A stretch of DNA of 64,000 nucleotides from positions 9,171-73,170 of the forward strand of contig JBBIJE010000002.1 of NCBI GenBank assembly GCA_037446155.1, read 5' to 3'. This DNA is from Myxococcales bacterium. Its GTDB lineage: Bacteria > Desulfobacterota > Binatia > UTPRO1 > JBBIJE01. The position numbers and the translations under genes are program-made. The first letter of the stretch is position 1, and each line of letters begins with the position of its first letter. Below are positions 3,069 to 50,025 of this stretch, one piece after another. Under the pieces are notes generated by a model. That model worked only from the letters and a program-made list of their open reading frames with translations, searched no databases and was not told where the DNA came from.

Positions 3069-3167
3069 GTCTCGCCGGGCCGACAGCCGCCCAAGCTCGT
3101 CCCCTTCTCGCAAGCCCTTACCCCATCGCACCAGGGGCGAGCCGGCGCGATCGCGGCCCGGCCGGGA

Positions 3168-5363
3168 TCAGTACTCATACGTGCTCCAGTCGATCTCTTC
3201 CTCCTCCCGCGGCTGCACCACGAGATGAGCCTCCAGGTCGTCCACCGCCATCATGAAATCCGTGACCGCATCGATTCGCCGCTCCGGCTCGGGCACCTTC
3301 GGGTATCCATCGATATCGTAGAATACCAGCGGCATGCGGGTCTCCAAGCCCGCCACCTTCTTCGGATTGCGCAAAAACTCCCTCACCCACTCGGGCCTGA
3401 GCCGCTTCTTGGTAAGCGCCAGATTGATCGAAAGATCGTCCGGATCGACGTCTTTCGGCAGGCCCTGCTCGATCGAGGCCGGGTGGCACTGCATGCATTT
3501 GTTCACGCGAAACACGCTGGCGCCGAGCTCCACGTTGTGCTGGTCTATCTTGGCGGGATCGACCTTCACGTAGTGGCGGGATTCGACTCCGGCCGACGCC
3601 GAGAAGTAATCCACGAGCGCCTCCGCGCTCGCGTCGTCGAAGTCGAAGTTCGGCATCCTCACCTTGAGCCATGGGCGCAGGGCTTCGGGCTTTTTCAGGT
3701 ATTCGAAGAGCCACTGGGGCTGTACTCTCGCGCCCTCGCCGGTAAGCGTGGGCGGGGCCCAGGTCTTGCGCTCGACGAACTCCTTCATGTTGCCCCCCTC
3801 GCCCTCGATCTCGTGGCAGCCGCGGCAGTGCAGGTGTGCAACCATGAGCCTGCCGCGCAAGAGAGCCTCCGTAGCGGGAGTCGCCCTTATGGTATAGGCT
3901 GCCGGCATCTCGGATCCGTCGAAGCTCAGGACGTATGTGACCAGGGCGCGAACGTCCTCCTCGGAAAGTTTGACCACGGGCATCCTGAGCTTGATGTTCT
4001 CCCGCTCGTAGGCCCTGGGCTCCGCAAGCTTCTTTACCAGCCAGTCCCACTTCGTTCGCGGCACGCCTTTCACCTCGCCGAAATCGAGCTCTTCCACCGG
4101 CCGCGCCGCGAACTCGCTCAAGTCGGGAACGCTGAGCGGCGTCTTCTCGAATCCTTTGATCTCGTGGCAGCCGAAGCACTCCATCTTCTCGACGAGCTTT
4201 TTCCCCTTCTCGGGATCCCCTCCCTCGGTAAGCTTGGCGAAATCGGCGAGCTTCTCCTCCCCCTGCTTCTGCTCGGCCAGATAGGCCACGATGTCGCGCC
4301 GCTCCTCTTCCGTGAGCTCGAGCTTGGGCATCGGAGTGGCGGGGTTGTATTTTTTCGGGTCCGCGATCCAGCGATCCAACCATTCCACGCTGACCTTGAC
4401 CCCGATTCCAGCCAGATGGGGAACGCGCCGGCTGACGCTCTTGTCCTGCGGCTCGACCGCGTGGCAGCCGCGACACCCCTTTTCCTTGAAAAGATTCTCG
4501 CCCCGGCTCGAAGAGGCGCCCGCCAGCGATACGCTCTCGAGCGGCGGCTGCTCGGGCATGGTGTCCAGGAAAGCGAGGAGGTCCCTCACCTCGTCTTCTT
4601 TCAGGAAGAAGTGAGGCATCACGGTGTCCTCCTTCGCCTTGGTCGGATCGGACACCCACATGGCGAGCCAGCGGCGGTCCTCGATCTTTCCCTTTATCGT
4701 GGAAAGCGAGGGAGCGAATTTCGGCAGAGCGAGCTTGCGCGCGGTGCGGTGGCATCCCTCGCATCCCAGCTCGACGAAGCGAACCTCCCCCTTTGCGGCG
4801 ACCTCCGCTCCCGCCAGCCCCTGGACGATCTCGTGGCAGCGAGCGCACCTCGCCTGGGCGTACTTGACCGGCAACATGGGCTGGGTTCCCTCGCCCACCA
4901 GGCCGTGCGCCGCCTCCACCGTGCTCCCCACTCCGAGGCCTCCATGGCACACGGTACAGCCGAACCTCGCCACCTGATGGGTTTTGAGATAGTCGCCCGA
5001 GTGGCTGCGAAAGGGCTGGGGCTCGTCGGCGAAGAGCGGATTATCGGTCGCGGCATGGCAGGTCGTGCAGTGATCCACCGCGCCGATCGCCGGAACGTAG
5101 ATCTGTTTTAGCTCCTCCTTCATCCCCGCCGCTTCGGCCTTCAGGCGCTCCAGCTTGGCGACCTCTTTCTCGTCGCCGGCCTCCTTCGCTTCCGCCGCCT
5201 TCCGCTCGAGAAGCTCCAGGTATCTGGCGCGAAAGTCGCTCTGGTATTTTCGCCAAGGCGGAGCGGTTTCTCGCACCACCGCCAGGGCGCAGAGAAGAAG
5301 AAATAGCGGGCCCGCGATCCCCATCGTGAAACGCAGACCCGGACTCCCACGCATCAAGCGCAA
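3168..5363 (-). CDS. Membrane-anchored octaheme c-type cytochrome
   Basis: Eight CxxCH motifs (CTTCH, CTVCH, CARCH, CEGCH, CRGCH, CFGCH, CRGCH, CMQCH). N-terminal hydrophobic anchor MGIAGPLFLLLCALAVV. Sits between the cytochrome b genes and alpha1. Confidence 0.85.
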   Translation of the reverse strand: MRLMRGSPGLRFTMGIAGPLFLLLCALAVVRETAPPWRKYQSDFRARYLELLERKAAEAKEAGDEKEVAKLERLKAEAAGMKEELKQIYVPAIGAVDHCTTCHAATDNPLFADEPQPFRSHSGDYLKTHQVARFGCTVCHGGLGVGSTVEAAHGLVGEGTQPMLPVKYAQARCARCHEIVQGLAGAEVAAKGEVRFVELGCEGCHRTARKLALPKFAPSLSTIKGKIEDRRWLAMWVSDPTKAKEDTVMPHFFLKEDEVRDLLAFLDTMPEQPPLESVSLAGASSSRGENLFKEKGCRGCHAVEPQDKSVSRRVPHLAGIGVKVSVEWLDRWIADPKKYNPATPMPKLELTEEERRDIVAYLAEQKQGEEKLADFAKLTEGGDPEKGKKLVEKMECFGCHEIKGFEKTPLSVPDLSEFAARPVEELDFGEVKGVPRTKWDWLVKKLAEPRAYERENIKLRMPVVKLSEEDVRALVTYVLSFDGSEMPAAYTIRATPATEALLRGRLMVAHLHCRGCHEIEGEGGNMKEFVERKTWAPPTLTGEGARVQPQWLFEYLKKPEALRPWLKVRMPNFDFDDASAEALVDYFSASAGVESRHYVKVDPAKIDQHNVELGASVFRVNKCMQCHPASIEQGLPKDVDPDDLSINLALTKKRLRPEWVREFLRNPKKVAGLETRMPLVFYDIDGYPKVPEPERRIDAVTDFMMAVDDLEAHLVVQPREEEEIDWSTYEY

Positions 5364-5381
5364 GCGCTCACCTCCCCGTCG

Positions 5382-6110
5382 CTAGATGTTGAACCAGGGC
5401 GTCACCAAGAGGTAACGCACACTGAGAAAGATCCTGAGCAGCATTTTTATCGGCACCGCGTACATGAGGAGCGTCAGGACCATCACGGTGTAATAGCGCC
5501 CAGCTCCGAGTCCCTGTTTGAGCCACGGCCAGCGCCTGGCCGGAAGGGCGATTCCCAGGCCGAAATACAAGAGGAGCAGCGGCCCGCCCACCCACCAGGG
5601 AAAGCTCCACAGGCTCTCCTCGGCCGGCTTTACCACCTCCCAGCTTTCCCACGGCCAGTAGAACTGCCAATTGGGGCCGCGCAACACCTGTCCTATGGCA
5701 ATGAGAACCCACCAGAGAGCGAAACCGAAGAGGAAATGGGCGATGGCGAGCCGCCTGCCGGCGAACTGGTACCGGCCGACCCCGACGGTGCTGGTGTCGA
5801 GAAAGGGTATGATCATGAGGCCCACGATTATGAGAGTCGGCAAGACGACCCCGGCGAACCAGGGGTCGAAATAAACGAGAAGCTCTTGCAAGCCGACGAA
5901 GTACCAGGGAGCCTTGGCTGGGTTCTCCGTGCGGTTGGGATCGGCCATGGCGCGAAGCGGGGCGTTTTGCACGAGCGCCCACACCATGAGGCCGCAGCTA
6001 ACGATCAGCGCGGCCAAGAATTCTTTGTAAACGAGCTCCGGGAAGACCGCGACCCGCCCCGGCCCGAATCCCTCGTCGTCGATCCTGCCTTGCTCGTTGC
6101 GCTCGCTCAT
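5382..6110 (-). CDS. Cytochrome b C-terminal half (subunit IV / PetD-like) of a Rieske/cytochrome b complex
   Basis: Within ORF 5382-6449. Start MSERNEQ at 6110 overlaps the upstream stop as ATGA. Motif [19 protein letters not shown] matches the PEWY region of cytochrome b/subunit IV. Several predicted TM helices with a C-terminal extension. Confidence 0.8.
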
Positions 6111-6910
6111 AGCGGACAGGAAATCCCGCCGTCCTTTCTCACGCGCCAGAAGTGGATGAACATGAGAATGCCAGCGATCAGGGGGAGCGCCACGCAGTGC
6201 AGGACATAGAAGCGAAGCAGCGCGTTGCCCCCCACACGAACGTCTCCCAAAAGGAGAAAGCGCGCGTCGTTGGTGGGCGTTACCCCTAGGAATTCGTGGA
6301 AGGGGCCCTCGGCGCCGATAAAGGGCGTAGCCGCCGCCATGTTGGTGCCGACCGTGATCGCCCAAAACGCCAGTTGATCCCAGGGGAGGAGATAGCCGGT
6401 GAAGCTCAAAAGCAGCGTGAGCACGAGCAGCACGACGCCGACCACCCAATTGAACTCCCGCGGGGGCCGGTAAGAACCGGTAAGAAAAACCCTGAGCATG
6501 TGGAGCATGACGAGCAGGACCATGAGGTGCGCTCCCCAGCGGTGGAGATTTCTAAGCGGCACTCCGAAGAGCACCCCATGTTCTAGAACCAGCATGTCGA
6601 GATAGGCCCACTCGGGAGTGGGCCGGTAATAGAACATGAGATAAACGCCCGTTATCGTCTCCACGATGAAGAGAAAGAGCGCAAGCCCCCCCAAGCAGAA
6701 GGTAAACCGCACCTTGAGGGCGGCTTTGGGGAGGCTCACCGGGTGCAGATGCAGAAAGAAGTTGCTCGTTACCTCGAGCGCGCGGTTTCTCACCGTGTCG
6801 GCATAGCCGTGCCGGAGCACCGCGGTCACCGGCTGACTCTCGCGGATCTTGCGCCCGACGCGGCGCAACCGCTCGCCGAATCTCTCCCTCCTAGGTGCCG
6901 GCCTGCTCAT
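6107..6910 (-). CDS. Cytochrome b6-like N-terminal half (di-heme cytochrome b)
   Basis: [25 protein letters not shown] and [28 protein letters not shown] carry the conserved heme-ligand His pairs of the cytochrome b N-terminal domain. The gene is split from the subunit-IV-like piece as in b6f/b6c complexes. Confidence 0.85.
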
Positions 6911-6934
6911 TTTGCTCTCTCGTTCCTCATCCCC

Positions 6935-7300
6935 TCAGTAGGGGAGCTCGCCGTGCTCGCGCTCCCACTGCTCGATCGGAACCATAGCGATCGCATCCCA
7001 GGGGCAGCCGGCCACGAAGCAACCCATCTGGCCCGAGGCAAGACAAGCGCGACAGCCGACGCACTTCAAGGGATCGACCCAGATCCTGCCGAACGGATAA
7101 GCATCGTCGGCCGGCTCGAGAATCATGCAATCCTCGACCGGGCAGAAAACCTGGCAGACCGGTGCGCCGGCGCAACCCGTGCACGCATCCGAAACGACGG
7201 CGATCGCCTTGGGCTTGCGCTTTCGCCTGCCGACCAACCGGCCGGCAGGGCCCTTGCCCGCTTTGGCGCTCGCAAGCGTCACTACCGCCCCCTGTTGCAC
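6935..7300 (-). CDS. 2[4Fe-4S] ferredoxin-domain protein
   Basis: Two cluster motifs: CTGCAGAPVCQVFCP and CVGCRACLASGQMGCFVAGCP. Lys/Arg-rich N-terminus. Placed between the Rieske and cytochrome b genes. Confidence 0.7.
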   Translation of the reverse strand: MQQGAVVTLASAKAGKGPAGRLVGRRKRKPKAIAVVSDACTGCAGAPVCQVFCPVEDCMILEPADDAYPFGRIWVDPLKCVGCRACLASGQMGCFVAGCPWDAIAMVPIEQWEREHGELPY

Positions 7301-7313
7301 ATCAGTCTCCCGC

Positions 7314-7913
7314 TCAGCCGAGAAGAACGAACGAATCGGGGTGGTCGAAGCTATCCGCCTCGAACACCTTGCTTGTGTCCACTACCAACATGCCGCTCAA
7401 GTCGACGCCGATTTTGAGCCTCGGCAACGGCCGGGGCGCGGGCCCGGAAAAGTTGACGCCGTTGCTATGGTACTCGCTGCCGTGGCAGGGGCAGCGGAAC
7501 TGCCTCGCCGAGGCGAACCAGTTGACCGTGCAGCCTAGATGAGTGCAGCGGCCCGACATGGCGAAGATCCGATCCTGCTGCCGGACGACGAAAAACCGGT
7601 AGCGGCGCTTCCAGGTCTCGTCCACTTCGATCACCCCGTAGGCGTCGGGGGTCCCGCCCCGCATGAACTCCTCGGGCGCCCCGATCCTGAACGTGGTGGG
7701 GGGCTGGTAAAGCACTCGGGGGAAGAAAAAGCGCAGGGTCTCGATCCCCGCCACCCCCAAAGTGGCGATAAACCCACCCCATCCCGCCAGGGTGAGGCCG
7801 CTCAGCAGAAGCTCGCGCCTGGCAAGCGACTCTTTGGCGCCCTCGCCGGCCTCTCCCGGCCCGACCAAGGCGCGGATCACCTTCGCAGCCGCATCGTCCA
7901 GTGGCATGCGCAA
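7314..7913 (-). CDS. Rieske [2Fe-2S] iron-sulfur protein, Tat-dependent
   Basis: CTHLGC and CPCHGS Rieske boxes. Tat motif ARRELLLSGLTLAGWGG followed by a TM helix. Start lies 4 nt after the chaperone stop. Confidence 0.85.
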   Translation of the reverse strand: MRMPLDDAAAKVIRALVGPGEAGEGAKESLARRELLLSGLTLAGWGGFIATLGVAGIETLRFFFPRVLYQPPTTFRIGAPEEFMRGGTPDAYGVIEVDETWKRRYRFFVVRQQDRIFAMSGRCTHLGCTVNWFASARQFRCPCHGSEYHSNGVNFSGPAPRPLPRLKIGVDLSGMLVVDTSKVFEADSFDHPDSFVLLG

Positions 7914-7917
7914 CCCT

Positions 7918-8580
7918 CTACTCAGCGCGCTTTAGAAGTCCCTCCACCCAATTTCGGTCACGGGTCGTGAACCCGACGGTCAAGGAAACCAGATCGGCGA
8001 AAAACTGGAGCGGCTCCTGCTTCGCGAGCTTGGCTGCCATGAGCGGCAGCCATTTCACGACTTGCCGCTCCAGAAAATCCCGCGTAGCCCGCCTGAAAGC
8101 GCCGCAATCATGACCTGCGTGGAGCGCGCGCGTTTCGCAAAAACTCAGGTAATGGAGAAACTCGAGCTCGGTGGTCAAATGGTCGGGAAGCTCGCGCTGG
8201 GTGCTCGACAGAGACAGCCCGAAGTGGCTGTAGAACCGCATCACTTCCTCCATCACCCGCATTCTCGCTCGCCCGTAGTGTCCCCCGTAGAGCGGACAGG
8301 GCGGGCCGCCCACCCCGACGTCGAACAGGCGAATGTACTCGGCCTGGAAGTCGTCGTACGAACAGGTGGCCGAAAGGGCGCCAAGCTCCCCGAAGTCGTA
8401 GGGAAGACCGGCCAAGAGGCCGCCGAGCTCATCGCGCAGCGTACCGCCAGCGACCGACGCGTGAAATTCCTCGGTGGGAAACCGGAAGCAGGAGGCGAGC
8501 GCCGCGTACACTCGGCTTCTCGCCGCAGCCGCCCTCTCCTCTTCCCCGCTTAGATCCCTGATTTCCACGTTCACGTCCAT
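7918..8580 (-). CDS. TorD/NarJ/EbdD-family cofactor-insertion chaperone (delta subunit)
   Basis: About 220 aa, Tat-proofreading-chaperone-like, with LPDHLTTELEFLHYL resembling the TorD-family signature. Overlaps the beta gene stop by 10 nt. Confidence 0.75.
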   Translation of the reverse strand: MDVNVEIRDLSGEEERAAAARSRVYAALASCFRFPTEEFHASVAGGTLRDELGGLLAGLPYDFGELGALSATCSYDDFQAEYIRLFDVGVGGPPCPLYGGHYGRARMRVMEEVMRFYSHFGLSLSSTQRELPDHLTTELEFLHYLSFCETRALHAGHDCGAFRRATRDFLERQVVKWLPLMAAKLAKQEPLQFFADLVSLTVGFTTRDRNWVEGLLKRAE

Positions 8581-9689
8581 CTAAGCTCCGCCGGATCCTG
8601 CGTGAGATGGCTGAATAGCTCCTTCCACTGGTAAACGATCAAGAGGTCCATGAGCTCGGACTTCTCGCCCCGGCGCGTCTTCGCCATCTCTCCCTTCAGC
8701 GTCTCGAGCGCCCGCTCGACCTCGTCCCCGAAGAGATACTGCAAGTACTTGAGCGGTATCCGGGGCTTGGTCTCGTCTATCTCCCCCCGTTCATTGAACC
8801 GCGGCGGCGCCAGCGGCGGCACGTAATAGACATTGGGCTCGGTTCCGGTCTCGGGGTGAAGCGGCAGCGCCACCTTCCACTCCTTTACCAGCTTGTAAAC
8901 GGGACTCGTCTCGTCGTCGAGCAATCCCACGAAACGAAGCCGGCCCGGGCACTGCCTGGCGCACGCCGGCGGCACCTTCTTCTCGACGCGCGGAAAACAA
9001 AAGATGCACTTTTGGGCCACCTTCTTCACATGATTGAAATATATCTTCTTGTAAGGGCAGGCCTCCATGCAAAACCGGTAGCCGCGACACCGCTTCTCGT
9101 CGATGAGCGTGATTCCGTCCTCTTTCCGCTTGTAGATGGCGTTACGGGGGCAAGCTTCCAAACAGGCCGGGTAGGAGCAATGGTTACAGATCCTCGGCAG
9201 GTAGAAATAGAAACTGTTGGGATACTGCCCGCCCCCCTGATCCTCGTCCCAGTTGGGACCCCACTTGGGCTCCTCGCCTTTTACTTTCAGATAAACGCCG
9301 TTCCCCTTCCCGCCTTGAAAGACCTCGTCGTAGTTGAACTCCCAGGCCGCTCCGAAATCGTCCACCAGCGGCAATTGCCCGGCTATAGGCTCCTTGAATT
9401 CCCCTCTGAAGCCGCCTCCCATCTTCTCCCAATCCTTGGGAGTGCCCTTGCCCGGCTGGGTGTTGACCGTCGCCCACCACATGTATTCCATACCCTCTTC
9501 GCGGGTCCACAGGGTCTTGCACGCTATGGTGCAGGTTTGGCATCCCAAGCACTTGTTCAAGTCGAACACCATCGCCAGTTGGTGATCTACCGTGCGAAGC
9601 TGCTCTTTCTTGGCCTTGGCTTCCCGCGCCAACTCCTCCTGCCGCTTCTTCTTTTCTTCCTCGAGCTGCTGCTGTGTCTTATCTGCCAT
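8571..9689 (-). CDS. Fe-S beta subunit of a type II Mo enzyme (NarH/EbdB-like, four Fe-S clusters)
   Basis: MVFDLNKCLGCQTCTIACK, CNHCSYPACLEACP, CRGYRFCMEACPY and CIFCFPR are the four ferredoxin-type Cys groups of NarH-family beta subunits. It also carries the family-specific insert (WEFNYDEVFQGG). Confidence 0.9.
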   Translation of the reverse strand: MADKTQQQLEEEKKKRQEELAREAKAKKEQLRTVDHQLAMVFDLNKCLGCQTCTIACKTLWTREEGMEYMWWATVNTQPGKGTPKDWEKMGGGFRGEFKEPIAGQLPLVDDFGAAWEFNYDEVFQGGKGNGVYLKVKGEEPKWGPNWDEDQGGGQYPNSFYFYLPRICNHCSYPACLEACPRNAIYKRKEDGITLIDEKRCRGYRFCMEACPYKKIYFNHVKKVAQKCIFCFPRVEKKVPPACARQCPGRLRFVGLLDDETSPVYKLVKEWKVALPLHPETGTEPNVYYVPPLAPPRFNERGEIDETKPRIPLKYLQYLFGDEVERALETLKGEMAKTRRGEKSELMDLLIVYQWKELFSHLTQDPAELRWT

Positions 9690-9750
9690 GGCTGCTCTCC
9701 TTCTCGCTCACTCGATCTCCCAAATCCGGGTTGATTCGCCTGCGCGCCGC

Positions 9751-10410
9751 CTATGCCTCCAACTCGAAGTCGCGCCATTCCTTGGAGAAGCTCTTGACTC
9801 CGGCGCGCTCGCCGTTTCCGCCTTCCCAAACGGCAAACCCGATCTTGGTCGGCTTTCCCACTTCGAGTTTGACCGACTCATCCGGCGGGCCCCCTACCGC
9901 CAAGTTCCTCGCCAGCACCACCTGCCACTTCCCGTTCTCCCAGCGGGACTTGGCCTTTATGAAGCTCTCTTCGCTGTAGTTGGTGGTGCTGAGGCCTTCG
10001 GCCCAAACGTTCTTCGGCTGATCGGCGAAATCGGCGCGCCAGTACCAGGCATTGACCCGCTCCTCCTTGCGCCCCATCTCGTCTATCGGAGGCTCGTCCT
10101 TGATGGGGAACAAGACGCCGGCACCATCCGGAAATGTGTTGGTTTCCGTTACCTCGAGATTGCGCGCCTCGTCCGCCCATTCGAGCCTCAAGAACACCTG
10201 CCCTCCGTTGTGACAGCATTTGACCTCGAGCTCCCTCACCTTCCCGATCTTCTTTTCGTCACGCGAAGCTTTGATGTACTCGGAAGGCTGATTCGCAAGC
10301 GGCGTCGCCGCCATCTCGATCTTCTCCCCCGCCACGCCGCTCCACTGCCCCGAGGTCGGATCGAGCAATTCCTCCAAACTCGCGCTTACCTTCTTTGCCT
10401 TTATCGCCAT
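9751..10410 (-). CDS. Heme-b gamma subunit, ethylbenzene-dehydrogenase (EB_dh) domain family (EbdC/SerC/NxrC-like)
   Basis: Within ORF 9751-10455; start MAIKAKK at 10410 overlaps the anchor stop. RVNAWYWRAD (W-x-W) and the C-terminal WEGGNGERAGVKSFS...FEL are reminiscent of the EB_dh heme-b domain. About 219 aa, as for EbdC-type subunits. Confidence 0.7.
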   Translation of the reverse strand: MAIKAKKVSASLEELLDPTSGQWSGVAGEKIEMAATPLANQPSEYIKASRDEKKIGKVRELEVKCCHNGGQVFLRLEWADEARNLEVTETNTFPDGAGVLFPIKDEPPIDEMGRKEERVNAWYWRADFADQPKNVWAEGLSTTNYSEESFIKAKSRWENGKWQVVLARNLAVGGPPDESVKLEVGKPTKIGFAVWEGGNGERAGVKSFSKEWRDFELEA

Positions 10411-10964
10411 CTCTCTCCTCCTATCTCTCGACGCAGACCGCTCGGCGCGGCCCACGCACGATCTAACGCCGCCGTTTTACCTCTAGCCCCCTCCCCTTCG
10501 CGCGCAAAAATCCAGCGCAGCGCTTTCAGTGCCCGCTCGGTACCCACTACTAAGATGTGCAAGCCCAGCACCGCCGCAGCGGCATAGGTGAGCCACTCGT
10601 GGATCGAAAACATCCGATCCGCAAGCTGAATGGAAAAATGGTCCGGCTTCCAGATGACGAGGCCGCTTGCACCGAAGATCAGGGTGACCCAGTAAGTGTA
10701 ACGCACGTGGATGCCCCGCCACCACCCCGTGAAGCGCCACGGGGGCATCTTGGGCCAGCGCCGCGCCCCGGCGTACACCACGAGAGGCACCACGAGCGAG
10801 ACGATGCCAAACCAGAGGTGGATCTCCTTGATCGTAGCGGAATAGCCGCCGACGAAGCGCGCCCGAAGCTCGGGAAAAAGGAGGAGGAGGGCGGTCCCGA
10901 AGGTCACCGTGAAAAGAGCGGCGTGACTCGTGTGCAAAACGAAAAGATAACTCGGCTTTCTCAT
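10401..10964 (-). CDS. His-rich polytopic membrane protein, putative heme-b membrane anchor/quinol-interacting subunit
   Basis: Within ORF 10401-11015; start MRKPSY at 10964. About 5 hydrophobic helices with His in or near them (LHTSHAALF, EIHLWFG, GIHVRY, SIHEWL, GLHILVV). First gene after the 200-bp gap downstream of alpha2. Confidence 0.5.
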   Translation of the reverse strand: MRKPSYLFVLHTSHAALFTVTFGTALLLLFPELRARFVGGYSATIKEIHLWFGIVSLVVPLVVYAGARRWPKMPPWRFTGWWRGIHVRYTYWVTLIFGASGLVIWKPDHFSIQLADRMFSIHEWLTYAAAAVLGLHILVVGTERALKALRWIFAREGEGARGKTAALDRAWAAPSGLRREIGGERWR

Positions 10965-11164
10965 CGGCCGCTCTGATCGAACCCCAAATTTGCGAACGGC
11001 AAGCGCCCATTGCATCGGCCGCCCCGCTCCGTTTCGCCTTCCCGTCCCCTTCCATAATCGCGCGCGCTGCAGGCGGCGCGCAATCCCCCGATCGGGGTAG
11101 CCCGTACATGCTTTCGATGAGCAGGAGCGAACGTACGGTTACACTCTTCCATCGGCCGTCCGGG

Positions 11165-14198: not shown

Positions 14199-17066
14199 CT
14201 AGGTCCTGATCCTCTCCACCTCGACCGCCGTCGCCCTGGGCGTGTGGCTCGGCTGCGCGAGGAAAGTACGGTAGTGGAGCTGGCCGTAGTCGCCGACCAG
14301 GTGGAGAGGCTTCCAGGGCGAAGCCACGACTTCTTGGTTACCCTGCCACTTCGGGAACTGATAGGGCTCCCAGGCGTGGTAAACGACAACCTGGCCCGGC
14401 TGCAGCGTGGGCGTTACCTTGGCCCTGGCGGAGAAGCTCCCCACGTCGTTGTAGATCCTGACCCTGTCATGGTCGGAGATACCGCGAGCCTTGGCGTCCG
14501 AAGAGCCGATGTAAATTACCGGCTCGCCCCGCTGAAGCTGCAGCATAAAACGCTGGTCGCGCCAGATGGCGTGTATGCTCCAGCGGGTGTGGCCTCCCGT
14601 CAGGCGAAGCGGGTAATCCCCCCCCGCCAGAGGGGGGGGCTTGTGCGTGGGAAGGGCCTCCCCGAGTTCCAGATACCAGTCGTGATCGATCAAAAACTGC
14701 TGTCTTCCGGTGAGAGTCGGCCAGGGCTGTTTCCCCTTCACGAACCACTGCGAAGGAGAGACCGGCTCGCCCTCGATAAGATCGCTGCAAACCGCGTCGA
14801 TGCCGCTGTAGCGCCCGGTGCTCTTGATCTTGATTACCCCGAGCTTTCGCGCCTCGCTCCAGTTCGTGCCCGCCGTAACGGGAGACTCCTCGAGGATATA
14901 CTCCATCGGCTTCGCGTCATCCCCCGGCGCCCACTCCCCTCCCTTGCTCCACTCCTCGTAGATGGCCGTGAGATCGTGGCGATTGCCGAAGACGTCGGTG
15001 ACCTCGCGGATTCCCGCCTTCTCGGCCTGCTCGGCGATTTTTCGCGCCAAGAGCCCCGAGACCTCCCACTCCCCTTTGGATTCGAACAGCGGATCGACCG
15101 CCCGATCCCCGATCACGACATAGGGCAGGTAGGTCTGAGTGAACTTGATGCCGATCTTCTCGTAATAGCCTGCGGCGGGCAAAATGATGTCCGAGTAAAG
15201 GCCGGTCGTGGACATCCGAAAGTTTATGCTCACCGCCAGGTCGAGCTTGGGCCAGAGAACTTCGCGCGCGACCTGCGGCGTCGGCCAGCGCCTAAGCGGG
15301 TTGAGCCCGCTGAAGATATAGAGCTTCGGAGATTTGCCGTTGCGCGGATAAAAGGGCATCCAGCCCTTTTCGTCCGCCTCTCTTGCGTATTCGGAAAATG
15401 GCCGCTTGAGCGCCGGATCGTTGAATTCGGGGCGGCTTACCACCTTGTCGAAGCCGCCATGGTGGTAGAGGCTATAGAGCACGGAGGTGTAGGCGTAGCG
15501 CTCCCTCACCAGGCGGGTAAAGAATCCCTCGAAGTCCCTAACCGTCGGCTTGGCCATGCCGATGAGAAAGCGATCGATGAGGCTCAAGTCGTAAGCGTTG
15601 GCCATCCGCTCGAATCCCTCGAGGCTCCACCACGCTCCGATCCTCAATCCCCCGCCCGGCTTTCCCTGGTTGCCAGTGAGCGCCACCAAAAGGATCATCG
15701 CGCGTTGCATGAGGTCGCTATGGTAATGCTTACATGAACCCCAGGAGGCGAAGATCATGGCGGAGCGCGCCTCGGCGAACTCGCGGCCGAGCTGCCGGAT
15801 GAGCTTTGCGTCGATCCCGGTCTGCCGACCAGCGAGCTCCGGCGTGAAATTGGCGTCAAGGTGCTCCCGCAGGACCTCGAAAACCGGCCGGACCTCGACC
15901 TTTCGGCCGTCGGCGAGCTCCACCGTGAAGCGGCCCTCGAGCGCGGGTTTTCGCGTGTAGAGTTTCAAATTGCCGCGCTTTAGGCCCTCGCTTCCCGGTG
16001 CTCGGGCGAGTTCGTTGTTGCTCGAGTCCCAGAAGTAGAAGACGTTTTCCGCGCCTTTCCTCTCCACATCCGACTCGCGCAAGAACTTCTTGGTGTCCTG
16101 GCGCACGAGAAGCGGCAAATCGGTTTGTTCGCAGACGTACTCGCGATCGTAGAGACCCTCGGCAATGATTACCTGTGCGGCCCCGAGGGCGAGCGCGGCG
16201 TCGCTTCCGACCCTGGGATTGAGCCACAGGTCGGCGTGGATGGCGGTGGCGTTGTAATCAGGTGCAACCACCACCAACTTGGCGCCGCGATAGCGTGCCT
16301 CGAGCATGTAGTGCATCTCCGGTATTCGCGTGTAAACCGGGTTGCCGAGCCAAACCACGATGTAATCGGACCTGAACCAATCGTCCGAAGTCCCGTCCAC
16401 GTTGAACATGCCCCAGGTTTGGATGGCGCCCATCGGCAGGTCGCCGACCCCAGCCCAGGAATCGAGGAAGGTCACCCCGAGCAGGCTAAAGAGCCGCTGC
16501 TCCCCTCCCGTGCTCGGGCCGAAATCCACGTTGGTCGTTCCGTGATCGTACCAGATGCACTCGGGTCCCTCCTTGGCCGCGACCTCCACGAGCTTGCGTG
16601 CGATCTCCTCCAGCGCCTCGTCCCACGATACCCGCTTCCATTTCGCGGAGCCTCGCGGCCCCAGCCGCTTGAGCGGGTACTTGATGCGACTCGGACTGTA
16701 CATGAGGTCGCTGTAGCAGGCGCCCTTTTGGCATCCTCGCGGGCCGAAGTCGGGAATTTGCGGGTTGGTCTGCGCGTAGCGTCCGGATTGCTCCTCCCGC
16801 CAGACGATCCCATCCTTGACGTAGAGGTCCCACGCGCACGCGGCGATGCAGTCGGTCCGCAGGTGGGTGCCTCGTACCACTTTGTCCCAGCGCCACTTCT
16901 CGCGGTAGAGGTCCTCCCAGGAAGCATAGTCGTAGCCGTCGACGATCCTCCCGCCGCTTGCGCTTTGCTCGGCGCGCGCCTCCCGGGACACCTCCAGGTA
17001 GTGCAGGCAGAGCGCAAGGCCGGCTGCCGCCCCCGCCGCTTTCAGAAACTCTCTTCGGCTCAGCAC
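14199..17066 (-). CDS. Molybdopterin oxidoreductase catalytic subunit, paralog alpha3, Tat-exported
   Basis: Tat motif SRREFLKAAGAAAGLAL. YASWEDLYREKWRWDKVVRGTHLRTDCIAACAW (H-x4-C-x3-C, about 16836-16865). 955 aa. Closest to alpha1. Sits 20 nt upstream of alpha2. Confidence 0.9.
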   Translation of the reverse strand: MLSRREFLKAAGAAAGLALCLHYLEVSREARAEQSASGGRIVDGYDYASWEDLYREKWRWDKVVRGTHLRTDCIAACAWDLYVKDGIVWREEQSGRYAQTNPQIPDFGPRGCQKGACYSDLMYSPSRIKYPLKRLGPRGSAKWKRVSWDEALEEIARKLVEVAAKEGPECIWYDHGTTNVDFGPSTGGEQRLFSLLGVTFLDSWAGVGDLPMGAIQTWGMFNVDGTSDDWFRSDYIVVWLGNPVYTRIPEMHYMLEARYRGAKLVVVAPDYNATAIHADLWLNPRVGSDAALALGAAQVIIAEGLYDREYVCEQTDLPLLVRQDTKKFLRESDVERKGAENVFYFWDSSNNELARAPGSEGLKRGNLKLYTRKPALEGRFTVELADGRKVEVRPVFEVLREHLDANFTPELAGRQTGIDAKLIRQLGREFAEARSAMIFASWGSCKHYHSDLMQRAMILLVALTGNQGKPGGGLRIGAWWSLEGFERMANAYDLSLIDRFLIGMAKPTVRDFEGFFTRLVRERYAYTSVLYSLYHHGGFDKVVSRPEFNDPALKRPFSEYAREADEKGWMPFYPRNGKSPKLYIFSGLNPLRRWPTPQVAREVLWPKLDLAVSINFRMSTTGLYSDIILPAAGYYEKIGIKFTQTYLPYVVIGDRAVDPLFESKGEWEVSGLLARKIAEQAEKAGIREVTDVFGNRHDLTAIYEEWSKGGEWAPGDDAKPMEYILEESPVTAGTNWSEARKLGVIKIKSTGRYSGIDAVCSDLIEGEPVSPSQWFVKGKQPWPTLTGRQQFLIDHDWYLELGEALPTHKPPPLAGGDYPLRLTGGHTRWSIHAIWRDQRFMLQLQRGEPVIYIGSSDAKARGISDHDRVRIYNDVGSFSARAKVTPTLQPGQVVVYHAWEPYQFPKWQGNQEVVASPWKPLHLVGDYGQLHYRTFLAQPSHTPRATAVEVERIRT

Positions 17067-17731
17067 GCCTCCGAGACCTCCTGCCTCCCGGGAATCAAAG
17101 CGGCTTGGAAGAACCGCAAGGTTTCTTGCTTGATCCGCGCCACGCCCTGTGGCCCGAATGCATCGGAAAGCCAGGCCGGGGCCAGCATGGGCGCCGAAAT
17201 GAACGAGAAAATCACGATACCCATCACGGCGATGATGAGAAACATCGGGTCCCCACGCCTGAAAACCCTGGCGTCTTGCCCTTGAGAGATGAAATCTGTG
17301 ATGGCCTCGATTATGGGCCTGGCATGCTCTGCGAGCGTGCGTCCCAGCTCTTCTTCCTGATCCAGCGCCGCCCGCACGAGCATGTGAGCCCTTCCCGGGT
17401 GCGTCGCGACGGATTCTATGTAGGTCTCGATAAGCTTGAGAAGCCGCTCCTCGAAGGAGAGGCTCCCGGAAATCGCGCCGCGAATCTTATCCTCGAGTTC
17501 CCGGGTGGCGCGGTCGGTTACCTCTTCGTATATGCTCTGCTTGTTCTTGAAGTGGTGAAAGAGCGAGGCCTTGCGGATCCCCACTTTCGCGGCCAGTTTC
17601 TGAAGGCTGGTCCCATGGTAGCCGTGCGCTGCGAACATTTCCTCGGCGGTCTTGAGGATCGCTTCGCGGGTATCGGCGCGGCCTCTGCGTCTTGGCCGTT
17701 TTACCGGCCTGCTTTCGTCGACGTTAAGCAT
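17060..17731 (-). CDS. TetR/AcrR-family transcriptional regulator
   Basis: N-terminal HTH TREAILKTAEEMFAAHGYHGTSLQKLAAKVGIRKASLFHHFKNKQ. Start MLNVDES at 17731 (ORF extends to 17782). Its stop overlaps the alpha3 start by about 7 nt. Confidence 0.85.
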   Translation of the reverse strand: MLNVDESRPVKRPRRRGRADTREAILKTAEEMFAAHGYHGTSLQKLAAKVGIRKASLFHHFKNKQSIYEEVTDRATRELEDKIRGAISGSLSFEERLLKLIETYIESVATHPGRAHMLVRAALDQEEELGRTLAEHARPIIEAITDFISQGQDARVFRRGDPMFLIIAVMGIVIFSFISAPMLAPAWLSDAFGPQGVARIKQETLRFFQAALIPGRQEVSEAC

Positions 17732-17982
17732 GCTAACCTTCCTACCGGTCGGGAGGGTAGATTGTAAAGGGCGACGCGTCATCCAAGAATGTGATTTTTG
17801 TCAGTTTTTTCGACGGGCCTCTCCGCGCAAGAAAAACGGCGGCGGCGGACCGAGCCGACTATCGAGCCCAGCCAGACTGCCCCCCCGTCGGGCCAGCGAA
17901 GAGGCGAAGCGCCAGCCAGGGCTGGTCCGCGGAGCGCCGTCCCCTGGTGCCGCCCAGGCCCGCCTGCTAAGTACCCAAACCC

Positions 17983-18417
17983 ATGGAAGAGCGCCAACCA
18001 CCGCAACCGAGGGGCTCTCGCCTACGCGACCTTCTTTTCCCCGATCCGCCTCGAAGCCTTCCGGCCTCGCGGGGGATCAGAATCGCGTTCCGCACGGCGC
18101 ACATCGCAAGCTTTGGCATCGTGTTGGGTGGGCACTTCTTCGACATCGAGCCGGCCCGTTTGCTCTGGCCCCTTTACGCCAGCGTGGCCACGGGTGCGGG
18201 GCTCATCGCCGTGGAGCTCCACAAGAGCTGCCGGTGGGTCTATCAGGGAATGGGTGTGATGACGCTACTCAAGTGCGCTCTTTTGCTGACAATACCATGG
18301 GCTTGGAGCTGGCGCGTGCCGATCCTTCTCGGCGTGTTGGTGCTAGGGTCCGTCGGCTCGCACATGCCGAGCCGGTTTCGCTACTACTCCCTCATCCACC
18401 GCCGCCCCCTGGAGTAG
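17983..18417 (+). CDS. Hypothetical small membrane protein (uncertain)
   Basis: Hydrophobic segments (IASFGIVLGGHFF, LIAVELH, VPILLGVLVLGSV). Divergent from the TetR gene. Its 3' end overlaps the convergent tatA by 26 nt, which lowers confidence. Confidence 0.3.
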   Translation: MEERQPPQPRGSRLRDLLFPDPPRSLPASRGIRIAFRTAHIASFGIVLGGHFFDIEPARLLWPLYASVATGAGLIAVELHKSCRWVYQGMGVMTLLKCALLLTIPWAWSWRVPILLGVLVLGSVGSHMPSRFRYYSLIHRRPLE

Positions 18418-18700
18418 CCTCGGGCTTTTTGTCTGCGGGAGGCTCGCCCCGAGTTGCCGACTCGCCCCCTTTCGTGGGCGTCGCTTTTGCCGCCGACCCT
18501 CCCGCCTCGCCTTTCTCCGCTTCCCGTTCCGCCTCGGCAATGGCGGTTCGCACCTGGGTTTCGACATCCCTGGCTGCTTTGCGAAACTCGGCCAGCCCTT
18601 TTCCCAGGCTTCGCGCAACCTCGGGAAGCCTTTTTGGCCCGAGGACCAAAAGCGCCACTACGAGGATAACGATGAGCTCGGGAAGGCCAATGGGTCCCAT
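18392..18700 (-). CDS. tatA: Twin-arginine translocase subunit TatA/E
   Basis: MGPIGLPELIVILVVALLVLGPKRLPEVARSLGKGLAEFRKA is a typical TatA TM plus amphipathic helix, followed by a charged, low-complexity tail. Confidence 0.85.
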   Translation of the reverse strand: MGPIGLPELIVILVVALLVLGPKRLPEVARSLGKGLAEFRKAARDVETQVRTAIAEAEREAEKGEAGGSAAKATPTKGGESATRGEPPADKKPEATPGGGGG

Positions 18701-18830
18701 TCAAGAGCTATCCAATCAGGCGCGGCCTGCGAGACCGCCCGAGGTACCCAAGACAATGAAGAGCCAAAGCCCGCCAAACCTCCCTGACGAGTCCGCCGGC
18801 TGGGCAGGCGCGCGCCCGGCGCTCGCCCCG

Positions 18831-19073
18831 CTACTGGCCACCCCCGGCCCGCCCCTTCTCCTTGGACTTCTCCCCTCCCTTTTCGCTCTCCTGATTCGAG
18901 GAGCCTCCTTGCGCGGAAGGAGTCACGTCGATTGCGTCGTCGCGCAGGCCCTTGCGAAAAGCCGTAATCCCCTTGCCCAACCCGCTCATGAGCTCGGGTA
19001 CGCGAGAGGCGCCAAAGAGGAGAAGGACGATCAAGAGAATCACCAAAAGCTCGGGTAAGCCGAGGCCGAACAT
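18831..19073 (-). CDS. Second TatA/TatB-family translocase subunit
   Basis: [42 protein letters not shown]; paralog of the adjacent tatA. Confidence 0.8.
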
Positions 19074-19193: not shown

Positions 19194-20024
19194 CTAGAGC
19201 CGCGGCCGCCTAAACGTCCTTTTACGCACGCATCTGCTGTCTAAGGCCCTGCCGCTTCCCCCTTCGCTTATGACGCGCATCATTACCGCGGGCGCCGTTA
19301 CCTCTACTCCACCCAGTACGCTCACCCCCCGCTCGAAGAGAGGCTCCGGCACCACGCTCGCTGTAGGGCCTACCACCGCTACTTCGCGCGCCCGCCCGCA
19401 CATGGGCAAAAGGCCGTCGAGCGACCCGTTGGCGAGGGCCGAGCCGGTGATGATCACGAGCGTGGAGACCCCGAGAAGCTCCGCCGCCTCCTCCTCCCGG
19501 CGAAGCCACCGCCGATGCTCATCCCTTACCATCGAGGAATCGCGCTCGAAAAGGTAAAGCTCCCGAACCCGCCCTTCGAGCCGCACGAGATAGGGCGTCA
19601 TCGCCCCCACGAGGCTCACGACGTCATCGGCCTCGGGGTGCAGAAGCTCGAAAGGATCCGCCGGCGCACCGGCGGCGTCGAATGCCTGGGGCCTTGGATT
19701 CTCTACGAGAACGTGGTTGCAGAGAGCGTTTAGAACCGCCATGCTGGCGGACCACAGGAGAGGGTCATCTTCGCCGCGAAGGGCGAGGAGCTCGAAGGCC
19801 GCCCTTTCGCAAAACGAGCCCGGCTCCGGCAAACCCCGGGAGGGTAAAGGGCAACACTGCCCCCTCGCCCTCTCCCCGTGCGAGACATACGCCAGTCCTG
19901 CCGATCCATCCTCGAGAACCGCTCCGGCCAGATAGACCCCGATGCGCAGATCCGCCACCGCCGGCCACCCAGCGGGAGGACCGAGCTCTCTTCGCACGGC
20001 CTCTTCGATTTCCGCTAGTAGGCT
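19194..20024 (-). CDS. DUF4213/DUF364-like protein (Rossmann-like putative metal-chelation domain)
   Basis: C-terminal 276 codons of ORF 19194-20570. The N-terminal R/G-rich part overlaps the Crp gene in another frame, so I discount it. Likely TTG start overlapping the Crp TGA. Region MAVLNALCNHVLV...TLVIITGSALANGSLDGLL...VAVVGPTASVVPEPLFERGVSVLGG. Confidence 0.45.
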   Translation of the reverse strand, partial: SLLAEIEEAVRRELGPPAGWPAVADLRIGVYLAGAVLEDGSAGLAYVSHGERARGQCCPLPSRGLPEPGSFCERAAFELLALRGEDDPLLWSASMAVLNALCNHVLVENPRPQAFDAAGAPADPFELLHPEADDVVSLVGAMTPYLVRLEGRVRELYLFERDSSMVRDEHRRWLRREEEAAELLGVSTLVIITGSALANGSLDGLLPMCGRAREVAVVGPTASVVPEPLFERGVSVLGGVEVTAPAVMMRVISEGGSGRALDSRCVRKRTFRRPRL

Positions 20025-20881
20025 CAACCCGCCGCCAAGCGCTCCAGCCGCGGGCGGTCGAGGATGGTCAACCGTCCACGCCCCGTCGCTATGACCTTTT
20101 TCTGCTTGAGCTTTCCGAGCAGGCGAATGACCGTCTCGGTCGCGACTCCTATGGCCTCCGCCAGCTCCCGGCGGCTGAGCGGCAAGATCAGCCGGTTCGC
20201 CTGCGCCGGATCCACGGCTCGATCCCCGAGCTGCAAGATCAGCGTGGCCAGTCGCGCCTCGGCCGATTTGAACGCGAGATCGTGAATCGCCAACCGGCTC
20301 GCCCGCAGCGCTTGGGAGAGCTGCGAGATGGTACGCATTGCCACAAGCGGCTGTTTCCGCACCAGTTCCATGAAACCGGCCCAGGGCAGGAACGATACCT
20401 GCGAATCCGTAAGCGCCTCGGCGGTGAGGGTAAGGACGCTCTTGGGCTCGATCGAAACCTCCCCCAGCAGCTCTCCCGGCCAGCACACGTGCACGATATG
20501 CTCCTCCCCCATTCGCCCGGTTCGCGACAACTTGACGGCGCCGTCGCAAAGGATATAGACGCCGAGACAAGGGCTACCCTCCCGAAAGATCGACTGATGG
20601 CGGCGGTAAAGCACGGTGGTCGCAAGCTCCAGGAAGGCCTCGAGGTCTTCCGGCGGCAGGTCGCAGAGAATACCGGTGTGGCGTACCTCGCAATGGTTGC
20701 AGGCTATTTTTTGCCGCGGCCTGCGGCCGCCGGATAGGGCGGACCGAGAGGGGGGCTGAGCCTCTTTGAGCGGCAAGCGCACCGTCACCGCGGGCCGCTT
20801 GCCTATTGGCGATGGCGGGCGAGAACCTGACGACTCTTTCATCTGATCACACGGCCTGTCCGGCCCCCTCTTTTCTAGCAC
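20024..20881 (-). CDS. Crp/Fnr-family transcriptional regulator with N-terminal Cys cluster (FNR-like sensor)
   Basis: cNMP-binding-like core (YRRHQSIFREGSPCLGVYILCDGAVKLS) and a Crp-type HTH (SRRELAEAIGVATETVIRLLGKLKQKKVI). N-terminal CNHCEVRHTGILC (C-x2-C-x8-C). Start is either GTG at 20881 or the internal MKESS. Confidence 0.85.
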   Translation of the reverse strand: MLEKRGPDRPCDQMKESSGSRPPSPIGKRPAVTVRLPLKEAQPPSRSALSGGRRPRQKIACNHCEVRHTGILCDLPPEDLEAFLELATTVLYRRHQSIFREGSPCLGVYILCDGAVKLSRTGRMGEEHIVHVCWPGELLGEVSIEPKSVLTLTAEALTDSQVSFLPWAGFMELVRKQPLVAMRTISQLSQALRASRLAIHDLAFKSAEARLATLILQLGDRAVDPAQANRLILPLSRRELAEAIGVATETVIRLLGKLKQKKVIATGRGRLTILDRPRLERLAAG

Positions 20882-26855: not shown

Positions 26856-27350
26856 CTACGTCAAGCGCACCCGGCAGTTGGCCGCCTGTCCGGTACTCTC
26901 TGCCACACCCACCTCCAATGACTCCAGGCCTTGGCGCATCCCGCTGCCAAGCTCCTCCTTGAGCCGGGTCGCGAGAAACCAAGCAAGCTCCTCCGCGGAG
27001 GTGTGCGCAATCGGAAGCAGGACGACGTCGGAGACCGGAAAGAGGAAACGCGAGCCGTCCCGGTGCACCACCTCCACGCTCTCGCCGAGTTCGCGAATGC
27101 TCAGGCAGTCGCTCCTCGCAGGAAGGAGGGTGCGCTCATCGAGCTCCCGGCACAGTCGCCTGCCCAAGTCTTTGACCAGGGCGAAGTCCATCACATAACC
27201 GTCCTCACCCAGGACGCCTTCCAGGCGAAGCGAAACCCGGTAGTTGTGCCCGTGCAGCCGCTCCCTGCCCTCTCCGTGGGCCATGAAATGAGCGGCGGAG
27301 AACTTGAGGTAATCCTTGGCTACCTGGATCGAAAATCTCTCGCCGGCCAC
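26856..27350 (-). CDS. 6-pyruvoyl-tetrahydropterin synthase / QueD-family protein
   Basis: FSAAHF...RLHGHNYRVSL resembles the PTPS/QueD Zn-binding His motif. 164 aa. Confidence 0.75.
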   Translation of the reverse strand: MAGERFSIQVAKDYLKFSAAHFMAHGEGRERLHGHNYRVSLRLEGVLGEDGYVMDFALVKDLGRRLCRELDERTLLPARSDCLSIRELGESVEVVHRDGSRFLFPVSDVVLLPIAHTSAEELAWFLATRLKEELGSGMRQGLESLEVGVAESTGQAANCRVRLT

Positions 27351-49086: not shown

Positions 49087-49365
49087 ATGGCCGACCGATC
49101 CGGCATCGGCCGCAAAAGGCCTCTACTCGTCCAGCTCTCGCGATTCGACCGCTTCGAGGATCCCTCGGCGCCAGTCAGGGCCTATCGCGCGGTACGGCAG
49201 ACCTTCGATTGCAAGCTCCTTCTCCTCGGCGCAGGGGCGCAGGACGATCCGAAGGGGGCAAGGGTGCTCGCGGAAGCGAGGGAGCCTTTGGCCGAAAACC
49301 CAGGCATTTGCGTTCCGGGGCCGGCGGTCGAGAGCGGGTCAGCAGGCCCCCTCAACGCTGGATGA
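49087..49365 (+). pseudogene. Remnant of a GT4-family glycosyltransferase (C-terminal-domain fragment only)
   Basis: RPLLVQLSRFDRFEDPSAPVRAYRAVRQTFDCKLLLLGAGAQDDPKGARVLAEAREPLAENPGI resembles the conserved C-terminal Rossmann half of GT4 enzymes. Only 92 codons, no N-terminal domain, and the end overlaps folE. Confidence 0.4.
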
Positions 49366-49900: not shown

Positions 49901-50025
49901 AGCGGGGCGATTATAACGGAGCGGCTGAACGGGGCAACTACCGTTCAGGGCGGTGCTCTGCGCCGTGTCGGGCACCGAATCGGGAAGAGGACCGGCGGGT
50001 TCGGCGGACCCTCGAGGCCTGCCCT

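Follow-up and report, generated by a model that had tools for sequence, protein, structure and literature searches.

A TetR-family regulator at the head of a three-alpha molybdoenzyme operon in a Binatia genome: a probable autoregulated repressor

What controls an operon that carries three periplasmic molybdopterin subunits together with its own cytochrome and Rieske genes, and does the class of its regulator say anything about what the enzymes act upon? The question is raised by a 64,000-nucleotide stretch of DNA (here called the window: positions 9,171 to 73,170 of contig JBBIJE010000002.1, assembly GCA_037446155.1, a Myxococcales bacterium assigned to the Binatia), in which a gene for a TetR-family regulator directly precedes that of alpha3, a molybdopterin subunit of the type II dimethyl sulfoxide (DMSO) reductase family. 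Our reading, to which we give a probability of about 0.7, is that this TetR would be a one-component, autoregulated repressor of its own molybdoenzyme operon, responding to the enzymes' substrate; it was reached by comparing sequences across related genomes.

The regulator gene is the first cistron of 13 co-oriented genes covering about 17.6 kb, in the order TetR, alpha3, alpha2, a cytochrome b561-like gene, gamma, beta, delta, Rieske, ferredoxin, cytochrome b, cytochrome b(C), multihaem cytochrome c and alpha1 (Table 1), with short gaps or overlaps throughout (61 nt at most, bar one gap of about 150-200 nt). The initial annotation had proposed that the TetR stop overlaps the alpha3 start by about 7 nt and that regulator and enzyme are therefore co-transcribed. 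The overlap is exactly 7 nt: the alpha3 GTG (17066..17064), which opens the reading MLSRREFLK with its twin-arginine motif, is the furthest upstream of the possible starts, and the next in-frame start would remove the arginine pair. A GGAGG stands 10 nt 5' of this GTG. The junction is base-for-base identical in a related strain (L089), where the gene order is also the same and alpha3 is 94% identical, and comparable TetR/alpha overlaps occur elsewhere (20 nt in L068, where the TetR stop lies over the alpha ATG, and 10 nt in L083). TetR stands at the head of the molybdoenzyme operon and is almost certainly co-transcribed with it, as had been proposed, and the pairing recurs in distant genomes. 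A terminator-like hairpin in the 3' end of the TetR gene (17117..17100) was considered and rejected, its stem and T-run being broken in L089 without compensation.

Since TetR alone has almost no close relatives (a word-index search returned its own 90% cluster and one 29% match, adjoining an AurF-like gene), the pairing was approached from the enzyme side. Homologues of the alphas number more than 2,500, from Binatia, Myxococcota, Chloroflexota and their uncultured relatives; we examined 79 loci with alpha3 homologues from species-representative genomes, mostly metagenome-assembled genomes of Binatia, Myxococcota/"Deltaproteobacteria," Chloroflexota and Nitrospirae, reading the TetR heads from maps of open reading frames (ORFs) in some of which gamma and beta are unlabelled. 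The closest counterpart outside the strain pair (L014) carries the gene set of the window in another order: TetR, gamma, beta, delta, four alphas, Rieske, ferredoxin, cytochrome b, multihaem cytochrome c and CRP. In L073 alpha follows TetR after about 27 nt, in six loci (L033, L051, L053, L057, L063 and L066) TetR is followed by a run of the gamma-beta-alpha-alpha type, in L008 it heads an operon that continues with a small ORF and then beta-alpha, and in L034 it is divergent. At least three TetR lineages head molybdoenzyme operons among the 79 loci: that of the window and L014 (38% identical), with looser kin in L068 and L034; a tight group of seven (46-80% mutual identity) with a weak YsiA/FadR-like C-domain; and that of L008. 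A TetR at the head of these operons is thus recurrent, not universal, and other operons with alpha3 homologues start with MobB or with unidentified genes.

The same association emerges from the regulator side. A profile of six TetRs from related loci retrieved 582 relatives, and eight of these were picked solely for the length of their contigs. In half of the eight, the next gene downstream on the same strand encodes a molybdopterin subunit of about 950 aa, an alpha resembling that of ethylbenzene dehydrogenase (EBDH), and in one case the two genes overlap by 10 nt; three of these four contigs continue with a nitroreductase-like protein, a ferredoxin and a Zn-alcohol dehydrogenase (Zn-ADH). 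The remaining four relatives head operons that encode P450, a KshA-like Rieske protein, a KstD-like flavoprotein, acyl-CoA dehydrogenases, enoyl-CoA hydratase, thiolase, and ChsH2-like and SCP2 proteins, and a respiratory oxyanion context was seen in none of the eight. The initial annotation had allowed that TetR homologues in related genomes might lie consistently apart from molybdoenzyme genes; they do not, in this sample or among the 79 loci, and the linkage of TetR to the enzyme is strongly supported.

Two further arrangements came to light in these loci. L068 (9188-15009) and L081, L082 and L083 (about 7001-12800) share a module made up of TetR, an alpha (about 950 aa), a 263-aa protein of the nitroreductase family, a 110-aa ferredoxin and a Zn-ADH, sometimes with an acyl-CoA dehydrogenase or thiolase next and without an adjacent beta or gamma gene. 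In L082, divergent from TetR-alpha (1729-6875), are found a MarR-type regulator, a ferredoxin-like protein, a different molybdopterin enzyme of 731 aa (Molybdop_Fe4S4) and a radical SAM protein.

The protein itself is a TetR-family member in both of its domains. The gene runs on the minus strand from ATG 17731..17729 to TGA 17062..17060, and its product matches TetR_N (PF00440; E 1.7e-15) over the full length of the profile with the helix-turn-helix (HTH) at residues 25-71, while its helical C-domain matches TetR_C_29 (36.3 bits, cut-off 26.2) and TetR_C_24 (31.4 bits). A PDB sequence search matched 148 TetR chains; the AlphaFold2 model, built from a 78-sequence alignment, has nine helices (from H18-36 through H194-212) at a mean predicted local distance difference test score (pLDDT) of 91.4, and Foldseek places it with many TetR structures at probability 1.00. 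It belongs to none of the curated orthologous groups (FadR/YsiA, FasR, ScbR, AcuR, BetI, AcrR and others) and exceeds no curated NCBIfam equivalog cut-off, the scores (cut-off in brackets) being 52 bits (150) for ScbR, 51 (330) for FasR and 45 (200) for FadR. Acyl-CoA- and lipid-sensing TetRs are among the better structural matches and the best partial NCBIfam hits. Reading a ligand from the structure was tried and given up: the model is good, yet its matches are to the generic TetR fold and too distant for a ligand to be transferred. A longer ORF is formally possible from ATG 17782; we consider this start unlikely, since the gene call of the L089 orthologue (91% identical) is also 223 aa and the promoter-like elements lie downstream of 17782.

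These elements were located by comparison. Between window and L089 the 251-bp intergenic region upstream of TetR has mostly diverged, and two islands are kept, one reading CTGACAAAAATCA(C/T)ATT and the other running from CTTTACAA through to the start codon. The second island holds an inverted repeat, CTACC-N9-GGTAG, which is the sole instance of CTACC-N6-11-GGTAG in the 64-kb window (0.09 expected). A palindrome also stands at -31 to -9 of the start codon before other genes of the TetR subfamily: it is perfect in L086 (TTTCTACCTGCGCGCAGGTAGAAA), with near variants in L085, L083, L081, L068, L088, L082 and L034. Aligned on their right arm, GGTAG, these promoters all show a -10-like TAGNNN or TAANNN that overlaps the arm, with the ATG 15-19 nt beyond the first base of GGTAG; on this spacing the TetR message could have no leader, or almost none. 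An imperfect 28-bp palindrome (17733-17760) gave way, once promoters were aligned, to the core and additional CTACC listed in Table 1.

What stands upstream of the operator differs with the kind of operon. Non-molybdoenzyme operons of the TetR subfamily have a good -35 (TTGACT or TTGATC), whereas the molybdoenzyme-linked promoters have in its place the box (C/A)TGAC-N5-TCA, which contains the TGA-N6-TCA core typical of CRP/FNR-type sites. A pattern scan for this box followed by the operator, over loci totalling 1.49 Mb, found 11 instances where we estimate that about 0.1 would be expected. Nine share one layout, (C/A)TGAC-N5-TCA, then 33-36 nt, then C(T/G)(A/C)CCG-NN-CGGTAG and TAG(G/A)(A/C)N, with the consensus palindrome CTACCGWWCGGTAG (operator consensus written out: CTACCGAACGGTAG). 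In these nine loci the cassette precedes TetR (window, L089 and L014, with the box at 833-845 in L014), a beta subunit beginning MG(K/R)QMAMVFDLNKCIGCQTC (L015, with the box at 2407-2419, L006 and L007) or an alpha with a Tat (twin-arginine translocation) signal (L003, L009 and L019). A situation that the initial annotation had thought damaging to its case, an operator found only before unrelated genes, thus does not arise for the corrected operator, which precedes molybdoenzyme genes. Relative to the predicted start, the box is about 62-66 nt upstream in promoters of the window type and about 41 nt upstream in those of the L068 type. The sequence GGTAGGAAGG is common to the window, L015, L006 and L007; in the last three it is 40-90 nt from the start codon, so that its conservation does not come from a role in ribosome binding.

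Two other candidates in this region were set aside. TACAAT (17766..17761) as the -10, which would put the box at about -43, has no equivalent hexamer at the same offset in L015, L006, L007, L009 and L019, whereas TAG(G/A)(A/C)N is kept in all; TACAAT is possible as a -10 for the window alone. An RNA hairpin that would sequester GGAAGG folds at -7 kcal/mol, worse than shuffled sequences (z +1.25). L015 has, in addition, a second perfect palindrome (CCTACCGAATGGTAGG, with a 4-nt spacer) at 2582-2597, about 200 nt from the first operator and at the start of a divergent alpha gene, which suggests a beta/alpha intergenic region with two operators.

By NCBIfam, the alpha, beta and delta of the operon belong to the type II DMSO-reductase subfamily: alpha3 scores 1006 bits against TIGR03479 (cut-off 985), TIGR03478 and TIGR03482 also exceed their cut-offs, and TIGR03477 (gamma) falls slightly under its own (157 bits against 170). 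Alpha3 has the traits of that subfamily, namely the Tat motif SRREFLK, the H-x4-C-x3-C (FS0) motif and an Asp ligand to Mo (D209, aligned with EbdA D223), in an operon with an FeS beta, a haem-b gamma and a NarJ-type delta. Scores against the EBDH equivalogs stay far below their cut-offs (EbdA 681-896 bits against 2000, EbdB 460 against 740, EbdC 161 against 400, EbdD 116 against 360). Relative to alpha3, alpha1 is 61% and alpha2 41% identical. One 57%-identical homologue bears the automatic JGI name "steroid C-25 hydroxylase alpha subunit."

There are, then, three alphas to a single beta-gamma-delta set within one operon, an arrangement that mirrors the multi-alpha steroid C25 dehydrogenases (S25DH); a fourth alpha paralogue (P0016) lies on the same 307-kb contig, outside the window. 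The cytochrome b561-like gene (10401-11015, minus strand) adjoins gamma, and a b561-gamma pair occurs in about 10 other loci. The Rieske, ferredoxin, cytochrome b and multihaem cytochrome c set (3168-7913), which is also present in L014, looks like a self-contained quinone-linked electron chain that would suit either direction of electron flow.

Taken together, these observations are consistent with the following scheme. Without ligand, a TetR dimer would sit on the 14-bp palindrome, which overlaps the -10-like TAGGAA and lies 7-20 nt from the ATG, and would thereby block RNA polymerase. A small organic molecule would release it, the candidates being a hydrophobic substrate of the enzymes or an early product (alcohol, ketone or acyl-CoA). 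As the repressor gene lies inside the operon, the repressor would be negatively autoregulated and made together with the enzymes. A second, activating input is suggested by the conserved box, the poor -35 and the nearby Crp/FNR-family gene: the product of the latter (20881..20024) would probably bind the upstream box, so that expression would need both the signal of the activator (probably anoxia) and the inducer. Alpha3 would be translated from its own GGAGG, either coupled to TetR translation or re-initiated after it.

Several points weigh against this reading. Binding, inducer, start site and activator all come from comparison between genomes, and the assignment of the operator to the TetR of the window is indirect, this protein being only 38% identical to its nearest relative outside the strain pair (L014); the operator of the window is itself imperfect, with one arm mismatch and the spacer AC against CTACCGWWCGGTAG. 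By a crude operon walk, a TetR is present in only about one-fifth of the alpha3-homologue operons with a resolved head. The structural matches of TetR, at 13-23% identity, are generic and permit no ligand call. Inside the TetR gene there is a sigma-70-like match, TTCTCA-18-TAGAAT (9/12; 17442..17413, minus strand), alone of its kind in a promoter scan of 1.6 kb (0.2 expected); it could allow some alpha3 transcription independent of TetR. As for the enzymes, we take Lys450 and His192 to be active-site residues of EbdA (a numbering checked solely against the 2ivf alignment); the His192 column is a Val next to an indel in alpha3 and is not conserved in the alignment. In bit scores, alpha3 (EbdA 643, PcrA 620) and alpha1 (615 and 561) are nearly equidistant from EbdA and PcrA, the only two references in the comparison, and the Rieske/cytochrome b/multihaem-c genes could also belong to a route that feeds electrons to a periplasmic reductase.

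The last two points are those on which another account of the locus could be built, namely that the operon encodes respiratory reductases of an acceptor that is inorganic or otherwise small and polar (selenate, chlorate, perchlorate, nitrate or similar), while TetR senses something other than their substrate, perhaps a toxic by-product or a redox-active quinone, in which case its presence would say nothing of an organic substrate. Selenate respiration in Thauera selenatis takes a route of the Rieske/cytochrome b and multihaem-c kind from quinol to a periplasmic reductase, and a regulator of the FNR family and its box are present here. The initial annotation had argued from the regulator itself, taking a TetR protein as circumstantial support for an organic substrate and NarXL-, FNR- or NsrR-type control as more typical of oxyanion enzymes. 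That contrast falls away, given the Crp/FNR gene 2.3 kb upstream and the conserved box in the TetR promoter. Regulator class does not track substrate class among the characterised enzymes, since ebd, far from being under a TetR, uses the two-component system EdiSR (PMC4729919), pcr uses PcrR/S/P with sigma-54 (PMC3884062) and a selenate reductase operon of an Enterobacter is reported to be under FNR control (PMC12724226). Literature searches for TetR control of ebd, cmd or s25d (EBDH-/S25DH-like) operons found no relevant paper, nor did searches for EBDH-like clusters in Binatia/Binatota or Myxococcota, and no regulator of the S25DH genes turned up in the literature searched. The lean toward an organic compound stands on other grounds. 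Alpha2, in the same operon, is clearly on the EbdA side (836 bits against 504 for PcrA); the EbdA K450 column is Lys in alpha3 (K446) and invariant in 27 homologues; alcohol dehydrogenases, short-chain dehydrogenases/reductases (SDRs) and beta-oxidation-type enzymes adjoin this operon and related loci; and, in the eight contexts sampled, the relatives of TetR outside molybdoenzyme operons head catabolic operons of lipid- or steroid-like type. Neither chlorite dismutase (cld) nor another oxyanion-specific gene was seen among the window ORFs scanned, and several alpha paralogues to few beta-gamma sets and one chaperone is the pattern of S25DH (PMC6016249). For these reasons an organic, probably hydrophobic, inducer or substrate is favoured, circumstantially, and we consider the respiratory account unlikely.

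Less probable still is that the true target of TetR is the divergent 144-aa membrane protein, or some distant gene, and that its place before alpha3 is accidental. Divergent pairs of a TetR and a membrane protein are the commonest TetR arrangement, and the shared intergenic region could serve both genes; in L014, though, the homologue of the membrane protein is 21 kb away while TetR still heads the molybdoenzyme operon, TetR-alpha or TetR-gamma-beta-alpha adjacency extends across lineages with at least three TetR subfamilies, and the operator cassette precedes beta or alpha in loci that have neither a TetR nor a membrane-protein homologue in the stretch examined. We regard this as very improbable. 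The initial annotation had placed the autoregulatory operator at yet another site, the AGCATGCT palindrome over the TetR start codon. The palindrome is there, is perfect and is kept in L089, where its conservation belongs to that of a fully conserved 40-nt block. A role as operator hardly seems credible for an 8-bp sequence with two copies in the window, where 0.85 would be expected, and none in the corresponding promoters of L014, L015, L003, L006, L007, L009 and L019, when a longer, family-wide palindrome lies 8 nt upstream. Repression of the molybdoenzyme operon from that longer palindrome by its own first gene product thus remains our preferred reading.

Table 1. Features of the TetR-molybdoenzyme locus, in coordinates of the window.
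Feature	Coordinates	Strand	Basis or remark
TetR-family regulator gene, 223 aa	17060..17731	minus	HTH at residues ~25-71; nine-helix fold
alpha3, Tat-exported type II DMSO-reductase-family molybdopterin subunit, 955 aa	14199..17066	minus	Pfam Molybdopterin and Molydop_binding
alpha2, EbdA-like molybdopterin subunit, 1004 aa	11165..14179	minus	starts 19 nt after alpha3
Cytochrome b561-like membrane protein, EB_dh haem-b gamma, 4-cluster FeS beta, NarJ-type delta chaperone	7918..11015	minus	Pfam, NCBIfam; L089 gene calls
Rieske, small ferredoxin, split cytochrome b, 731-aa multihaem cytochrome c	3168..7913	minus	short gaps/overlaps
alpha1, third molybdopterin subunit	153..3131	minus	last gene seen of the co-oriented run
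GTGcTGA, alpha3 start codon over TetR stop, 7 nt	17060..17066	minus	direct reading, kept in L089
GGAGG, ribosome-binding site of alpha3, within the TetR coding region	17077..17081	minus	direct reading, kept in L089
Candidate TetR operator: core CTCCCGACCGGTAG at 17755..17742, additional CTACC at 17760..17756	17742..17760	minus	comparative
-10-like TAGGAA over right operator arm, ATG 7 nt downstream	17739..17744	minus	inferred from alignment
Weak -35-like TTTACA, 18 nt upstream of TAGGAA	17763..17768	minus	direct reading, kept in L089; role inferred
CRP/FNR-like box CTGACaaaaaTCA (TGA-N6-TCA), centre ~65 nt upstream of ATG	17792..17804	minus	conserved island against L089
AGCATGCT palindrome across TetR start codon	17727..17734		judged a chance feature
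Crp/FNR-family regulator, cNMP-binding and HTH_Crp_2	20024..20881	minus	2.3 kb upstream of TetR
144-aa membrane protein, divergent from TetR, without family match	17983..18417	plus	homologue in L014, away from TetR there

The surroundings of the operon add some detail. The Crp/FNR-family gene has homologues in related clusters (L014, L028 and L073); its product scores 66 bits against the Fnr subfamily model (cut-off 228), and the C-x2-C-x8-C near its N-terminus is present only with a long start; the 220-aa product called in L089 would lack it. The minus-strand stretches between this gene and TetR (18392-19073 and about 19194-20000), arranged alike in L089, encode a pair of TatA/B-family paralogues and a protein of the DUF4213/DUF364 ("heavy-metal chelation") type; these are possibly helpers dedicated to the Tat-dependent alphas, in export or with the cofactor. 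Farther upstream are an enoyl-CoA hydratase, an SDR, a Zn-ADH and an acyl-CoA ligase, and later a 3-hydroxyacyl-CoA dehydrogenase. A 6-pyruvoyl-tetrahydropterin synthase (QueD-like) and GTP cyclohydrolase I (26856-27350 and 49352-50029, minus strand) point to pterin/queuosine metabolism, with no evident link to the operon. Rfam gave no match within the window.

The design that we propose has precedents. BetI (betIBA) and AcuR (acuR-acuI-dddL) are TetR repressors encoded by the first gene of the catabolic operon that they repress, and the regulator described here would resemble them as a one-component HTH repressor co-transcribed with its targets, with negative autoregulation, an operator over the core promoter and an inducer related to the pathway. 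It would differ in that its targets are periplasmic enzymes with Mo-bisPGD (the molybdenum bis-pyranopterin guanine dinucleotide cofactor) and a respiratory chain, and in that its promoter appears to need a CRP/FNR-type box rather than a good -35. The TetR start, moreover, is 7 nt after the -10-like element, so that the message is possibly leaderless. To Bacillus FadR (YsiA), Mycobacterium tuberculosis FasR, Myxococcus AibR and Thermus PfmR it is tied by structural matches and by relatives that head beta-oxidation or steroid-like operons, although at 17-22% identity, and with scores far under the family cut-offs, membership in any of these groups is not supported.

Among the enzymes, the ebdABCD-ped system of Aromatoleum aromaticum has alpha, beta and gamma subunits and a delta chaperone that belong to the same type II DMSO-reductase subfamily, an ADH/SDR nearby and a Tat-exported periplasmic alpha; unlike the operon of the window, it has a single alpha and is without Rieske, cytochrome b and multihaem cytochrome genes, and its control by EdiSR (PMC4729919) is of another kind. 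Sterolibacterium denitrificans S25DH (PMC6016249) is closer in the multiplicity of its alphas, to which the three alphas and the fourth on the contig, with their one beta-gamma-delta set, correspond. PcrA (pcrABCD) shares with alpha3 the Asp ligand to Mo as well as a high score, and differs in having His where alpha3 has the Lys of the EbdA K450 column and in the PcrR/S/P and sigma-54 control of its genes.

In mechanism, this is a standard autoregulated TetR operon; the operator-box cassette and the wide occurrence of TetR-alpha pairs add useful new detail but no new principle, and the value of the finding is practical rather than conceptual. Control of this locus seems to draw on a TetR together with an FNR-type input, and in this family the class of the regulator alone fails to separate organic from oxyanion enzymes. 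We tentatively consider it possible that the TetR subfamily, the CTACCG-NN-CGGTAG operator and the CRP/FNR-type box together form a dedicated substrate-sensing switch of a large, uncharacterised clade of EBDH-like molybdoenzymes. If so, the regulator would offer a handle (for ligand screening or as a biosensor) on the substrates of these anaerobic hydroxylases, and the operator would define their regulon in metagenomes. The enzymes under such control are part of a big family, that of the oxygen-independent, C-H hydroxylase-like molybdoenzymes of uncultured soil, groundwater and sediment bacteria, and the repressor-operator pair would provide a cheap experimental route to what they act upon, through the compounds that release TetR from its 14-bp site.

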